A stretch of DNA of 50,069 bases from a virus (Duplodnaviria; Heunggongvirae; Uroviricota; Caudoviricetes): IMG/VR virus record IMGVR_UViG_641522650_000006; one strand, 5' to 3'. Shown piece by piece: positions 3,448 to 21,549 of this stretch. Below the pieces are notes generated by a model. The model ran no database searches, was not told the origin of the DNA, and saw only the letters and a program-made list of their open reading frames with translations. Numbering within the stretch: the stretch's first letter is position 1; every line of letters starts with the position of its first letter. A program made the position numbers and the translations under genes.

Positions 3448-3451
<4 letters not shown>
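3125..3451 (+). CDS. IS629 OrfA
   Basis: 108-aa [24 protein letters not shown]... Confidence 0.85.
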
Positions 3452-4738
<1,287 letters not shown>

Positions 4739-7155: not shown

Positions 7156-7521
7156 ATGATTGATGTCTTAGGGCCGGAGAAACGCAGACGGCGTACCACA
7201 CAGGAAAAGATCGCAATTGTTCAGCAGAGCTTTGAACCGGGGATGACGGTCTCCCTCGTTGCCCGGCAACATGGTGTAGCAGCCAGCCAGTTATTTCTCT
7301 GGCGTAAGCAATACCAGGAAGGAAGTCTTACTGCTGTGGCCGCCGGAGAACAGGTTGTTCCTGCCTCTGAACTTGCTGCCGCCATGAAGCAGATTAAAGA
7401 ACTCCAGCGCCTGCTCGGCAAGAAAACGATGGAAAATGAACTCCTCAAAGAAGCCGTTGAATATGGACGGGCAAAAAAGTGGATAGCGCACGCGCCCTTA
7501 TTGCCCGGGGATGGGGAGTAA
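7156..7521 (+). CDS. insC: IS2 OrfA (InsC)
   Basis: [29 protein letters not shown]... Confidence 0.85.
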
Positions 7522-8384
7522 GCTTAGTCAGCCGTTGTCTCCGGGTGTCGCGTGCGCAGTTGCACGTCATTCTCAGACGAACCGATGACTGGATGGATGG
7601 CCGCCGCAGTCGTCACACTGATGATACGGATGTGCTTCTCCGTATACACCATGTTATCGGAGAGCTGCCCACGTATGGTTATCGTCGGGTATGGGCGCTG
7701 CTTCGCAGACAGGCAGAACTTGATGGTATGCCTGCGATCAATGCCAAACGTGTTTACCGGATCATGCGCCAGAATGCCCTGTTGCTTGAGCGAAAACCTG
7801 CTGTACCACCATCGAAACGGGCACATACAGGCAGAGTGGCCGTGAAAGAAAGCAATCAGCGATGGTGCTCTGACGGGTTCGAGTTCTGCTGTGATAACGG
7901 AGAGAGACTGCGTGTCACGTTCGCGCTGGACTGCTGTGAGCGTGAGGCACTGCACTGGGCGGTGACTACCGGCGGCTTCAACAGTGAAACAGTACAGGAC
8001 GTCATGCTGGGAGCGGTGGAACGCCGCTTCGGCAACGATCTTCCGTCGTCTCCAGTGGAGTGGCTGACGGATAATGGTTCATGCTACCGGGCTAATGAAA
8101 CACGCCAGTTCGCCCGGATGTTGGGACTTGAACCGAAGAACACGGCGGTGCGGAGTCCGGAGAGTAACGGAATAGCAGAGAGCTTCGTGAAAACGATAAA
8201 GCGTGACTACATCAGTATCATGCCCAAACCAGACGGGTTAACGGCAGCAAAGAACCTTGCAGAGGCGTTCGAGCATTATAACGAATGGCATCCGCATAGT
8301 GCGCTGGGTTATCGCTCGCCACGGGAATATCTGCGGCAGCGGGCTTGTAATGGGTTAAGTGATAACAGATGTCTGGAAATATAG
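7479..8384 (+). CDS. insD: IS2 OrfB (InsD) transposase
   Basis: 301-aa ORF overlapping insC; DDE integrase-like region. Confidence 0.85.
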
Positions 8385-9611: not shown

Positions 9612-10268
9612 TCAGAAAATATCCCACCTGGCATCAACCACAACACCTACTATTTCGCAATCATTGTCCATTTCTATGATTGGATATTGTGGATTAAGGG
9701 GCTTTAGAAACGCCTTTCCCATGTCAGAAATATATTTTTTGAATGTTGCTTCATTGGTGGATTTTTTTCTGGCGATGACGTAACACCCTGAAAAAACTTC
9801 TTTATCTGGGTTGACAAGGATCGACATTCCTTCAGGAAATGTTATTCCTACGGGCGAAGTCATTGAGTCTCCGTGCACTTCCAGCCAGAACCCCCTCTCA
9901 CCAGCGTATTTTACAGAATGCCTCCAATTATCCTGATCATACATGTTGTAGTCATCACCAGAAGTTGCGAATAATCCTGCCTGAACCCAGTTAATTACAG
10001 GGTAAGAGTGTGCTGTGTCTCTCTGTGGGCAGCTCTTAACATTATTTTCCCAATGCTTATCTTTTTCATCTCCGTTCTGAAGCCACTGCGGTGAACACCC
10101 CAGTGCAGCTGCAACTTTAAAAAGGGTGTCACCGTTGAAACTTTTTGTAAGGCCTTGCTCGGCTTTACTGATTGCAACTCTGGTGATCCCAGCTTTTTTA
10201 GCCAACGCATCTTGTGTTAACCCAGCTTTTTGCCGTGCGTTGATGAGACGTTCACCTAAAGACTTCAT
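9612..10268 (-). CDS. CI-like prophage repressor (N-terminal HTH plus LexA/S24-like peptidase domain)
   Basis: MKSLGERLINARQKAGLTQDALAKKAGITRVAISKAEQG... then S24-like C-terminus with ...GDSM... and K residues. Confidence 0.75.
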   Translation of the reverse strand: MKSLGERLINARQKAGLTQDALAKKAGITRVAISKAEQGLTKSFNGDTLFKVAAALGCSPQWLQNGDEKDKHWENNVKSCPQRDTAHSYPVINWVQAGLFATSGDDYNMYDQDNWRHSVKYAGERGFWLEVHGDSMTSPVGITFPEGMSILVNPDKEVFSGCYVIARKKSTNEATFKKYISDMGKAFLKPLNPQYPIIEMDNDCEIVGVVVDARWDIF

Positions 10269-10379
10269 TTTTCTTCTCCTCTCATGGCTGTTGATACGAA
10301 AGTAACAGAATTTCTTGATACTTTGGAATCCCGCGGTTAACATCGTTGAATAACAAAGTATCTGGTGTGAGACTAAAGA

Positions 10380-17547: not shown

Positions 17548-17922
17548 ATGCTCATAGATTTGGTTTTACCTTACCCGCCGACGGTGAACACTTACTGGCG
17601 ACGCCGTGGCAGCACATATTTTATCTCGGAGGAGGGAAAGCGTTATCGCCGGGCTGTGGCGCTTATTGTTCGCCAGCAGCGGCTGAAATTAAGCCTGTCC
17701 GGAAGGCTGGCGATAAAGGTGATTGCAGAGCCACCGGATAAGCGTCGTCGCGACCTGGACAATATCCTGAAAGCACCGCTGGATGCGCTGACGCATGCGG
17801 GAGTGTTAATGGACGATGAGCAGTTTGATGAAATCAATATCGTTCGTGGTCAGCCAGTATCTGGTGGACGTATGGGGGTGAAGATTTACCCCATAATGCA
17901 TGAAGAGCAGGTCAAAAAATGA
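17548..17922 (+). CDS. rusA: RusA Holliday-junction resolvase
   Basis: LPYPPTVNTYWRRRG...RRRDLDNILKAPLDALTHAGVLMDD. Confidence 0.8.
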   Translation: MLIDLVLPYPPTVNTYWRRRGSTYFISEEGKRYRRAVALIVRQQRLKLSLSGRLAIKVIAEPPDKRRRDLDNILKAPLDALTHAGVLMDDEQFDEINIVRGQPVSGGRMGVKIYPIMHEEQVKK

Positions 17923-18740
17923 AACTGGAAGATTTACCGAAATACTACTCCCCAAAATCCCCTAGCCTGACCGATGCATCGGCCTCAACGTCAAAAGATG
18001 CGCTGAGTATCACTGATGTGATGGCCGCGCAGGGCATGACACAGAATCGGGCTGAGATGGGGTTTTCTGCGTTCCTGGGGAAAATGGGCATCAGTATGAA
18101 TGACAGGGCGCGGGCAACAGAATTACTGGCAGATTATGCACTCAGTCGGTGCGATCGTGTGGCGGCGTTGAGAAAACTTCCGGCAGAAATAAAACCGGTA
18201 GTGATGCGCATTATGGCTTCGTATGCGTTTGAAGATTATGCCCGTAGCGCGGCGAGCAAAAAACAGTGCCCCTGCTGTCACGGAAAAAAATTTATTGAAA
18301 GCGAGGTTTTTACAAACAAGATCCAGTATCCGGATGGTAAGCCACCAGTGTGGGCAAAGTGCACAAAAGGCGTGTATCCGTCTTACTGGGAAGAATGGAA
18401 AAAAGTCAGGGAGGTGGTAAAAGTTGCCTGTCCGGAGTGTGGCGGAAAGGGTGAGGTTTCCACCGCCTGTAAGGATTGCCGTGGGCGTGGTGTCGCCATT
18501 CATCGTGAAGAGTCGGTAAAACGTGGTATGCCTGTTATCAGAGACTGCCAGCGTTGTGGTGGTCGTGGCTGTGAAAGACTACCATCAACGGAGGCATTTA
18601 ATGCCATATGCAAAGTGACGAGTGCTATCACGCTTGATACGTGGAAAAAATCAGTGAAACGCTTTTACGATACGTTGGTGGTTCGGTTTGACATTGAAGA
18701 GGCATGGGCGGAGCGGCAGTTAAAGAGGGTAACGCGATAG
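17919..18740 (+). CDS. Q-like late antiterminator (zinc-binding)
   Basis: 273 aa with several CxxC pairs; last gene before a PR'-like promoter and terminated leader. Confidence 0.5.
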   Translation: MKLEDLPKYYSPKSPSLTDASASTSKDALSITDVMAAQGMTQNRAEMGFSAFLGKMGISMNDRARATELLADYALSRCDRVAALRKLPAEIKPVVMRIMASYAFEDYARSAASKKQCPCCHGKKFIESEVFTNKIQYPDGKPPVWAKCTKGVYPSYWEEWKKVREVVKVACPECGGKGEVSTACKDCRGRGVAIHREESVKRGMPVIRDCQRCGGRGCERLPSTEAFNAICKVTSAITLDTWKKSVKRFYDTLVVRFDIEEAWAERQLKRVTR

Positions 18741-19164: not shown

Positions 19165-19314
19165 AGGCTTTTTTATTTGTGGTAAATGGGCGGCTGGTGG
19201 GTGTTAGGGGCACCCACCAGCCATCTGCTCATGCGTTGGGTTCACAAGCAAACCTCAGGCCCACTGCTTTGCGCAAAAGCAGAATGAGCCTATCAGAGAC
19301 AGGCTTAATGATCC

Positions 19315-20364
19315 ATGCTTAATACTGTAAAAATATCCAGTTGTGAGTTAATCAACGCCGACTGCCTGGAATTTATCCGGTCGTTACCCGAAAATTCTGT
19401 TGACCTGATAGTCACGGACCCGCCGTACTTTAAAGTGAAGCCTGAGGGCTGGGATAACCAGTGGAAGGGCGACGATGATTACCTGAAGTGGCTGGACCAG
19501 TGTCTGGCGCAGTTCTGGCGGGTGCTGAAACCTGCCGGAAGTCTTTACCTGTTCTGTGGTCATCGCCTGGCATCTGATATCGAAATCATGATGCGTGAAC
19601 GCTTCAGTGTGCTGAACCATATTATCTGGGCGAAGCCTTCCGGACGCTGGAACGGGTGCAACAAGGAAAGCCTGCGGGCGTATTTCCCCGCCACAGAGCG
19701 CATTCTGTTCGCGGAACATTATCAGGGGCCGTATCGTCCGAAAGATGCCGGGTATGAGGCGAAGGGCAGGGCACTGAAACAGCATGTGATGGCCCCGCTG
19801 ATTTCTTACTTTCGTGATGCATGCGCGGCCCTGGGGATAACGGCAAAACAGATTGCAGATGCCACAGGAAAGAAAAACATGGTGTCGCACTGGTTCAGTG
19901 CCAGTCAGTGGCAGTTGCCGAACGAAAGCGATTATCTGAAATTACAGGCACTGTTTGCCAGGGTGGCAGAAGAGAAGCATCAGCGGGGGGAACTGGAAAA
20001 GCCCCACCACCAGCTGGTGGATACGTATACTTCACTGAACCGACAGTATGCGGAGCTGCAGAGTGAATATAAACATCTGCGGCGGTATTTTGGTGTGACG
20101 GCGCAGGTGCCGTACACGGATGTGTGGACACATAAACCGGTGCAGTTCTATCCCGGGAAACATCCGTGCGAAAAACCGGCAGAAATGCTGCAGCAGATAA
20201 TCAGCGCAAGTAGTCGTCCTGGTGATCTGGTTGCGGATTTTTTCATGGGGTCGGGTTCAACGGTAAAAGCGGCACTGGCGCTCGGGCGTCGTGCGATTGG
20301 CGTTGAACTGGAGACAGGACGTTTTGAGCAGACAGTCAGGGAAGTTCAGGATTTAATCGTTTGA
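19315..20364 (+). CDS. DNA N6-adenine/N4-cytosine methyltransferase, orphan
   Basis: DPPY motif (TDPPYF) and C-terminal FFMGSGST SAM-binding motif; no adjacent restriction gene. Confidence 0.7.
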   Translation: MLNTVKISSCELINADCLEFIRSLPENSVDLIVTDPPYFKVKPEGWDNQWKGDDDYLKWLDQCLAQFWRVLKPAGSLYLFCGHRLASDIEIMMRERFSVLNHIIWAKPSGRWNGCNKESLRAYFPATERILFAEHYQGPYRPKDAGYEAKGRALKQHVMAPLISYFRDACAALGITAKQIADATGKKNMVSHWFSASQWQLPNESDYLKLQALFARVAEEKHQRGELEKPHHQLVDTYTSLNRQYAELQSEYKHLRRYFGVTAQVPYTDVWTHKPVQFYPGKHPCEKPAEMLQQIISASSRPGDLVADFFMGSGSTVKAALALGRRAIGVELETGRFEQTVREVQDLIV

Positions 20365-20413
20365 AACGGATGAGATTGCAGAATTAATTACGCACCATTA
20401 TTATTCTGCTCCC

Positions 20414-20486
20414 GGCCCTTTAGCTCAGTGGTGAGAGCGAGCGACTCATAATCGCCAGGTCGCTGGTTCAAATCCAGCAAGGGCCA
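20414..20486 (+). tRNA. tRNA with CAU anticodon (ileZ-like Ile2, or Met)
   Basis: Acceptor GGCCCTT/AAGGGCC, TAGCTCAGTGG D-arm, GGTTCAAATCC T-arm. Confidence 0.7.
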
Positions 20487-20496
20487 CTATCACATA

Positions 20497-20570
20497 CCGC
20501 CATTAGCTCATCAGGAAAGAGCGCCAGCCTTCGAAGCTGGTTGCGCGGAGTTCGGGTCCCCGAAGGCGGT
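20497..20570 (+). tRNA. tRNA-Arg (UCG), argN-like
   Basis: Cloverleaf with anticodon loop CTTCGAA; one acceptor and one T-stem mismatch. Confidence 0.6.
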
Positions 20571-20586
20571 TCATTATCTGTATCCT

Positions 20587-20663
20587 GCGTTGTTAGCTCA
20601 GCCGGACAGAGCAATTGCCTTCTAAGCAATCGGTCACTGGTTCGAATACAGTAGAACGCGCCA
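20587..20663 (+). tRNA. tRNA-Arg (UCU), argO-like
   Basis: Anticodon loop CTTCTAA, T-loop TTCGAAT, encoded CCA end. Confidence 0.7.
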
Positions 20664-20678
20664 CACTTATTTTCCCTG

Positions 20679-20702
20679 GCTCGCTTTTGCGGGCTTTTTT
20701 TT
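20679..20702 (+). terminator. rho-independent terminator after tRNA cluster
   Basis: GCTCGC-TTTT-GCGGGC followed by eight T. Confidence 0.45.
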
Positions 20703-20953
20703 AAATGTCTCACAATTCAGGCGGTTGACTGTTGTCTGGTTTGCGGGGAGTTTGTTAAAAGAAACTGGCATGGTGAATCCCCCTGTGCGGAGGGGCAATC
20801 AGCGAGTAGGTATATGGGATAATCGCAGATTCAGGTGCTGGTACTGAATTCACCGGGAGGCACCCGGCACCATGCAATGGCACATAGCGCCACTCTCCAG
20901 CCCCTCTCCGGAGGGGCTGTTTATATTGATTTTGTCAGATGTGAGTAAACTCC

Positions 20954-21310
20954 TTATGGACTTTGTTGTTTTAGCCCATAAGGACATATTTGCAGAGTGC
21001 AACGGTTATTAAAGCATTCATTCAATACGTTATCTGTATTTGTAGGGCATTCCTGGCTGTTTTTGATTAAATTCCAGAATGTTTTATTGAATGGTACTAC
21101 GTTGTAAATGGTTACAGGTAGCACTTTGTTATTGAGCATGATGCCTGTGTGAGTCAGTGTAAATATACTTTCAGGAGGTAAGAAAGCATCCGATTGATAC
21201 CAGATTATTAATTTTATTTTACTCCATATGACTGAAAAAGATATTCCGCATGATGGCTGGATAACTGTATCAATCACAATCCACTTCATTTGGTTTCCTT
21301 GTTTATGCAT
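20954..21310 (-). CDS. hypothetical ORF in AT-rich segment
   Basis: 118-aa ORF antisense to late transcription; may be non-coding. Confidence 0.25.
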
Positions 21311-21549
21311 TGCTGGTGATGTTCTGAAAAGTATAAATGATATTTTTGAATGTAAACCATAGAGCAGAATTATTTTTCTGATGTTGTTTATTGTTTATTT
21401 AAATGCAGGGTGGTTTATATCTCGTCTTGTAGTTTATCCATGCATATCTGCTTGATGATGAGGTTTTTATTTAAGGTATGGTTTTGTGTTTTTTCTGTAT
21501 TACATGTCAGGTATTTTAAAGAATCATTTTTCAGATGGTGGAAAGAACC

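Follow-up and report, generated by a model that had tools for sequence, protein, structure and literature searches.

What fills the interval between the last tRNA gene and the esterase gene in a prophage whose late region is built like that of the Stx phages? For the 50,069-nucleotide stretch of viral DNA analysed here (the window), the original prediction held that the toxin site of such phages was occupied by an AT-rich segment without stx. The underlying arrangement, in which a Q-like gene, a methyltransferase gene, three tRNAs and a NanS-p-like gene are ordered as they are around stx, was borne out by ARAGORN, by Pfam and by approximately 94% DNA identity over 19300-20701. The Q gene (17919-18740, plus strand) encodes a late antiterminator of 273 amino acids (Pfam PF03589 Antiterm, E 2e-49), and its region is 94% identical at the DNA level to its counterpart in the potB prophage of strain CFT073. 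It is followed on the same strand by a DNA N6/N4 methyltransferase gene (19315-20364; Pfam PF01555, E 6e-44) and by three tRNAs recognised by ARAGORN and by the Rfam tRNA model: a tRNA with a CAU anticodon of the 'ileZ' type (20414-20487), tRNA Arg-UCG (20496-20572) and tRNA Arg-UCU (20587-20663). The methyltransferase gene and the tRNAs are about 94% identical to those of Stx2a phages, and the identical tRNA trio is labelled ileZ-argN-argO in the record of phage 933W. An intrinsic terminator, found in a terminator scan as a 7-bp stem followed by a T run, lies 3′ of the last tRNA (20678-20703, plus strand), and its homologous hairpin in 933W carries the record label 'possible rho-independent terminator upstream of the stx genes'.

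The right boundary of the interval is set by a gene for a sialate O-acetylesterase of the NanS-p type (21550-23415, plus strand). This reading frame, of the 620-amino-acid class, has the three-domain NanS-p architecture in Pfam, with DUF1737 at residues 8-55, the SASA esterase domain at 71-266 and DUF6645 at 473-584, and it lies directly 5′ of the lysis genes. Because the esterase start at 21550 is taken from an annotated, near-identical locus (L001), the spacer between the last tRNA and nanS-p measures 886 bp (20664-21549), in agreement with the gap of roughly 0.85 kb originally described. The succession of Q, PR′, tRNAs, toxin slot, nanS-p and lysis genes is that of a lambdoid late region of the Stx-phage type. 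Beyond the lysis genes, a small ORF (26747-27088) encodes a TonB C-terminal domain, and a similar 'TonB family protein' is present in the Stx2a prophage of strain 02E060.

An Stx-converting phage carries both stxA and stxB, and neither was recovered here. Searches of the 50-kb window with Stx1A/B and Stx2A/B by tblastn, and with both stx cassettes by blastn at word size 7, gave no significant match, in keeping with the claim that stx is missing. The best matches were of the kind expected by chance, with E values of 0.55 or worse, lengths of 9-59 amino acids or 14-19 nucleotides, and scattered positions.

The position at which the toxin genes would lie can be fixed closely. Pairwise blastn comparisons with three Stx2a phages produced two blocks, of which one joins window positions 19300-20701 to phage DNA ending 53 bp before stx2A, at about 94% identity, and the other joins 20706-22691 to phage DNA beginning 41 bp past stx2B and running onward, at about 81% identity. 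A three-way alignment agrees with these break-points, and E. coli genomes repeatedly show them (query positions 99 and 102). Since the two blocks flank the cassette, stx2AB is placed by these alignments as a clean 1,335-bp indel at 20701/20706, just past the tRNA terminator, and this cargo insertion point is empty in the window. A third state of the slot is found in the CFT073 potB prophage, where an AT-rich stretch of about 640 bp containing a DUF3927 ORF (L006, 12554-13208) maps to the window junction 20675/20698 and is unrelated in sequence.

These comparisons also bear directly on the view that the slot was refilled, with stxAB replaced by a shorter AT-rich segment of unassigned function holding one doubtful antisense ORF. 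The segment does lie between the last tRNA and nanS-p, where Stx2 phages have stx2AB, and its right two-thirds have a GC content of 29-35%. Nevertheless, the same Stx2a phages carry stx2AB together with a full counterpart of the DNA from 20706 to nanS-p, located downstream of stx2B and including an antisense gene that some records label iraM; in Stx1 phages, STnc100-like sequence is likewise found downstream of stx1B. Because toxin genes and segment homologue coexist in Stx2a phages, the two are neighbours and not alternatives, and this collinearity refutes the replacement scenario. Two further features, described below, speak against it: the ORF encodes a protein 100% identical to the characterised IraL, and the left 190 nucleotides are an sRNA gene recognised by Rfam. 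We therefore regard a refilled slot as barely credible. The alignments instead indicate that the stx slot is unfilled and that the 886 bp adjoin it on the right as a conserved segment, so that the proposed occupation of the toxin site by this segment does not hold.

Nor does the interval consist only of AT-rich DNA, as had been stated. A structured sRNA is encoded at 20739-20928, where the GC content is 54.7%; AT-richness is limited to the right-hand part, with 34.8% GC in the coding region of the antisense gene and 29.1% in the 227 bp 5′ of it. Two small plus-strand ORFs (20872-21012 and 21410-21613) have no family matches in Pfam and were set aside as chance occurrences. The more general idea that AT-rich DNA serves here as accessory cargo was right.

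The GC-richer part is an sRNA gene of the STnc100 family, EcOnc27 type (20739-20928, plus strand). It matches Rfam RF02076 over model positions 1-206 of 206 with 126.9 bits (gathering score 47), and minimum-energy folding gives back the core helices of the consensus. The gene has its own terminator, detected in the terminator scan as a 9-bp GC-rich hairpin (20898-20919) followed by a T run, and published STnc_100 qPCR primers (PMC12370729) match exactly, as read by eye, at 20770-20789 and 20842-20861. STnc100 is the computational name of the Hfq-bound sRNA EcOnc27, which lies just downstream of stx2B in O157 (PMC4104026, PMC12711010). In EDL933, eleven STnc100 copies are known, most with transcript reads, and STnc100_4 was confirmed by Northern analysis (PMC5331693); a link between STnc100 and the PasD sRNAs, which lie upstream of the esterase gene, is drawn in a 2026 preprint. 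By analogy with these homologous copies, the copy in the window may likewise give rise to a small transcript associated with Hfq. The PGAP annotation of related genomes includes a partial pseudogene for a 'hypothetical protein' (L001, 6095-6220; window 20758-20883, minus strand) that falls wholly within STnc100 and is probably spurious. The non-Stx phage vB_EcoS-640R1 has tandem STnc100-like copies (L009, 4521-4749 and from 5001 onward) that are 73% and 97% identical to that of the window, with small ORFs between them, and this pair lies upstream of iraL.

The antisense ORF was predicted to span 20954-21310, as reported by the ORF finder. An ORF is indeed present, and it corresponds to a characterised gene, iraL, that most likely begins further downstream. 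The coding region (20954-21289, minus strand) specifies 111 amino acids plus a stop codon, and all 111 of 111 residues match IraL of CFT073 (WP_000871291.1). A gene has been classed as iraL when its entire coding region shares at least 95% identity with that of CFT073 iraL (PMC4045071), a level that the window gene exceeds, and the similarity extends to the flanks, with the DNA of 20698-21703 being 98.6% identical to CFT073 over 1,006 bp. No Pfam family matched the antisense ORF. Its product scores 161.7 bits with NCBIfam NF007393 (IraM subfamily; cut-off 121) over profile positions 1-113 of 114, and it aligns, over the full 81 residues, with the IraM crystal chain PDB 8twd_A (E 1.1e-32), which represents the N-terminal domain that binds RssB. 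By these similarities, the product is a member of the IraM/IraL/RssC family of RssB anti-adaptors.

Published 5′-RACE data allow the start of the transcript to be placed. The 32-nucleotide RACE sequence (PMC4045071) corresponds to the minus strand of 21291-21322 with a single mismatch, where zero matches are expected by chance, and transcription would thus begin at 21322. This assignment and a comparison with three other loci define a 5′ UTR at 21290-21322, in which a Shine-Dalgarno sequence, AAGGA, precedes the ATG at 21289. The sole mismatch is a G-to-T substitution at 21309 that is absent from CFT073 and from two other loci, and it is this substitution that creates the ATG at 21310. That codon is in frame, seven codons 5′ of the normal start, and lies only 12 nucleotides from the mapped transcription start with no obvious Shine-Dalgarno sequence. 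Because the upstream ATG arises from a change that CFT073 and the two other loci lack, the true start of iraL is most likely the ATG at 21289, giving the 111-residue protein.

Upstream of the transcript lies an AT-rich promoter and regulatory region (21323-21549, minus strand; 29% GC). It contains a -10 element, TATACT, at 21330-21335 and, read by eye, a -35-like element, TTTACA, at 21351-21356, separated by a 15-nucleotide spacer. The 60 nucleotides 5′ of the start differ from CFT073 at one position and at one to two positions across CFT073 and two other iraL loci, which accords with the report that the upstream region is at least 96% identical in all iraL strains (PMC4045071). The conserved sigma-70 promoter and mapped start that characterise iraL-type genes are both present. 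No convincing intrinsic terminator for iraL was found on the minus strand; the hairpin at 20898-20919 is followed by a T run only on the plus strand.

Although the protein is identical to a functional one, the ORF could in principle be inactive or otherwise regulated, either as a Mg-starvation, PhoP-controlled gene of the IraM type or as a decaying pseudogene. Automated annotation does call it 'anti-adapter protein IraM', the 5′ UTR carries the substitution described above, and the surrounding prophage is degraded. The protein is, however, 100% identical to IraL and only 62% identical (over 107 amino acids) to IraM of K-12 (b1160; PDB 8twd, in complex with RssB), with which it shares the region of the beta-barrel N-terminal domain and the conserved C-terminal cysteines. 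K-12 iraM occupies a separate locus next to e14, and its homology with the window is confined to the coding sequence, at 71% DNA identity. The K-12 promoter region is therefore not shared, and the K-12 locus was ruled out as another instance of the module. The retained iraL promoter and transcription start and the intact reading frame also count against an inactive or IraM-like gene, which we consider very unlikely. [quoted passage not shown]

The closest relative of the locus is the iraL region of the CFT073 potB prophage, in which iraL has the same orientation, promoter and transcription start as in the window. Both regions contain Q, the three tRNAs, STnc100, a DUF1737 esterase gene and a holin gene. 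They differ in the roughly 640 bp with the DUF3927 ORF that separate the last tRNA from STnc100 in CFT073, where the window slot is empty; in an IS200 element that replaces the methyltransferase gene of the window; in the esterase gene, which is truncated in CFT073 and full length in the window; and in the one substitution within the iraL 5′ UTR.

Taken together, these observations make it very probable that the 886 bp constitute a conserved accessory module of lambdoid prophages, located just downstream of an empty stx insertion point and composed of STnc100 and iraL in convergent orientation, with iraL as lysogenic-conversion cargo. In a lysogen, the late operon would be silent, and iraL would be transcribed from its own sigma-70 promoter in the AT-rich DNA, with the sRNA produced from the opposite (late-gene) strand. 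IraL would then bind the N-terminal receiver domain of the adaptor RssB, assuming that the host has rssB and rpoS, and RpoS would be stabilised during exponential growth because RssB would no longer deliver it to ClpXP. It is this stabilisation in the lysogen that would make iraL the conversion cargo of the prophage. Binding to the RssB N-terminal domain and log-phase stabilisation of RpoS were established experimentally for IraL of CFT073 (Hryckowian et al. 2014, PMC4045071), and the same activities are predicted for the identical protein of the window. Structurally, the paralogue IraM acts by reshaping the RssB linker and covering the face that binds sigma-S (PMC10844676). Upon induction, RNA polymerase modified by Q would start at PR′, pass both the tRNA and the sRNA terminators, cross iraL in antisense and continue into nanS-p and the lysis genes. 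Both the expression of iraL in the window's own host and the antisense read-through at induction are inferred.

In the present case it may be that only the lysogenic part of this scheme still operates, because the prophage is heavily broken by IS elements. Within 27506-37533, inverted repeats at 27506-30348 and 34691-37533 are 100% complementary over 2,843 nucleotides, and nested repeats at 31607-32798 and 33508-34699 are 100% complementary over 1,192 nucleotides. The arms are made of transposase genes of the IS110 and IS66 families, with an IS3-type element in the left arm only, and the centre of the palindrome holds a minus-strand fragment of an Nu1-like small terminase gene, immediately 5′ of the gene for the large terminase (37581-39566). 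This region reflects either a palindromic rearrangement, mediated by IS elements and disabling packaging, or a faulty assembly. In the early region, transposase genes of the IS3 family (rve; 3448-4338 and 7479-8384) adjoin Ead/Ea22-like genes and a cI-like gene (HTH plus S24 peptidase, 9612-10343). A prophage so riddled with IS elements fits a degraded element such as those found in Shigella or EHEC.

If the slot is empty, the toxin genes may have been lost or may never have been there. A recent and precise loss, by which a former Stx2 phage would have shed its 1.3-kb toxin cassette, could explain why the limits of the stx2AB cassette fall precisely on the 20701/20706 junction and why identity to Stx2a phages is about 94% in the left flank. 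Against this, no remnant of the cassette is visible, since the window lacks both the 53 bp that precede stx2A and the 41 bp that follow stx2B. Identity of the right flank to Stx2-phage DNA reaches only about 81%, compared with at least 99% identity to the 886 bp in 507 E. coli records that have no stx at the junction. Likewise, a chimeric 926-nucleotide query joining stx2B to the window iraL allele (the stx2B junction only) was covered to at least 80% in none of 5,426 complete E. coli genomes. IraL proteins with at least 95% identity occur in four phage records, none of which carries stx, and all of the approximately 40 Stx2 phage records with a homologue have a 72-74% identical paralogue instead. 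The unrelated DNA in the CFT073 slot, finally, fits cassette exchange by lambdoid-phage recombination. A recent loss accordingly appears improbable. With respect to the comparison with Stx phages that had been proposed as a means of choosing between deletion and replacement, the alignments argue against replacement and against recent deletion alike, and an ancient, precise loss of stx is possible.

The state seen in the window is widespread. At least 80% of the 886 bp is covered in 1,428 of the 5,426 complete genomes, where the ORF bears the same 'anti-adapter protein IraM' label, and the unbroken junction from tRNA to STnc100 is found in 1,036 of them, or about a fifth. The latter group includes non-Stx prophages of O157:H7 and O111:H8 strains, and the junction is also present in phage Nil3, which comes from an O157:H7 strain. 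None of the complete genomes covers at least 80% of 13-30 kb of the window, and the prophage is therefore a mosaic.

Comparison with the Stx phages points to a second site of variation on the other side of STnc100. Stx2a and Stx2c phages such as Stx2_EH1846 (LC567840) and WGPS2 (NC_049941) share the gene order of the window, with methyltransferase, three tRNAs, terminator, slot, STnc100, antisense IraM-like gene, AT-rich spacer and nanS-p in succession, but they differ in having stx2AB in the slot and a distinct anti-adaptor paralogue. This third IraM/IraL paralogue is 73% identical to IraL and 65% identical to K-12 IraM. It is intact, encodes 107 amino acids and lies antisense about 300 bp downstream of stx2B, past STnc100 (L002, 4495-4818, equivalent to LC567840, 17138-17461). 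The gene is present in about 40 other phage records of the Stx2a, Stx2c and Stx2k types and is annotated in few of them. Among the papers listed by a full-text literature search, none links iraM or iraL to the stx locus or treats the third paralogue, although several GenBank records annotate the gene; nor is it mentioned in a paper devoted to the flanks of Stx2a.

In Stx2 phages of the 933W/Sp5 type, STnc100/EcOnc27 likewise comes after the slot on the plus strand, and opposite it, before nanS-p, stands a convergent element on the minus strand. In 933W (L011, 3778-4037), STnc100 (207.7 bits, plus strand) abuts the 53-nucleotide anti-sRNA AsxR (88.1 bits, minus strand), so that the convergent element there is AsxR and not a protein gene, whereas the window has iraL. 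Because AsxR sits at the position of iraL, the convergent element is exchangeable. A search of 20664-21560 for AsxR and AgvB (RF02703/RF02702) gave no match at E values up to 10, with 933W serving as the positive control at the 88.1 bits given above. Some Stx1 and Stx2a phages have a spacer of about 500 bp with no gene annotated at the convergent position, and convergent sRNAs at this moron site have already been described (Tree et al. 2014, PMC4104026). We tentatively suggest, as a conjecture that has the odds against it, that the minus-strand position between STnc100 and nanS-p is a second exchangeable slot of lambdoid prophages, which gathers 'anti-regulators' of host post-transcriptional control such as IraL, AsxR and the third paralogue. 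The convergent layout, in which iraL has no clear terminator, might also couple the transcripts of sRNA and anti-adaptor through antisense overlap.

All parts of this locus are known and their arrangement is common: the window provides a further example of a prophage gene already known to stabilise RpoS and of an sRNA that is likewise known, in an arrangement present in roughly one fifth to one quarter of complete E. coli genomes. What changes is the map of the cargo, on which the stx slot shrinks to a junction only a few bases long, directly behind the terminator of the last tRNA, and STnc100 together with a convergent element (iraL, an IraM-like gene or AsxR) forms a separate, adjoining module. 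When stx-negative relatives of Stx phages are annotated, an AT-rich antisense gene at this position should not be dismissed, and the PGAP pseudogene drawn over STnc100 should be viewed with suspicion. The only lead with some novelty is the presence of an anti-adaptor paralogue beyond stx2B and STnc100 in phages of the Stx2c type. If this third paralogue also blocks RssB, then lysogeny by such phages would raise the RpoS levels of the host.
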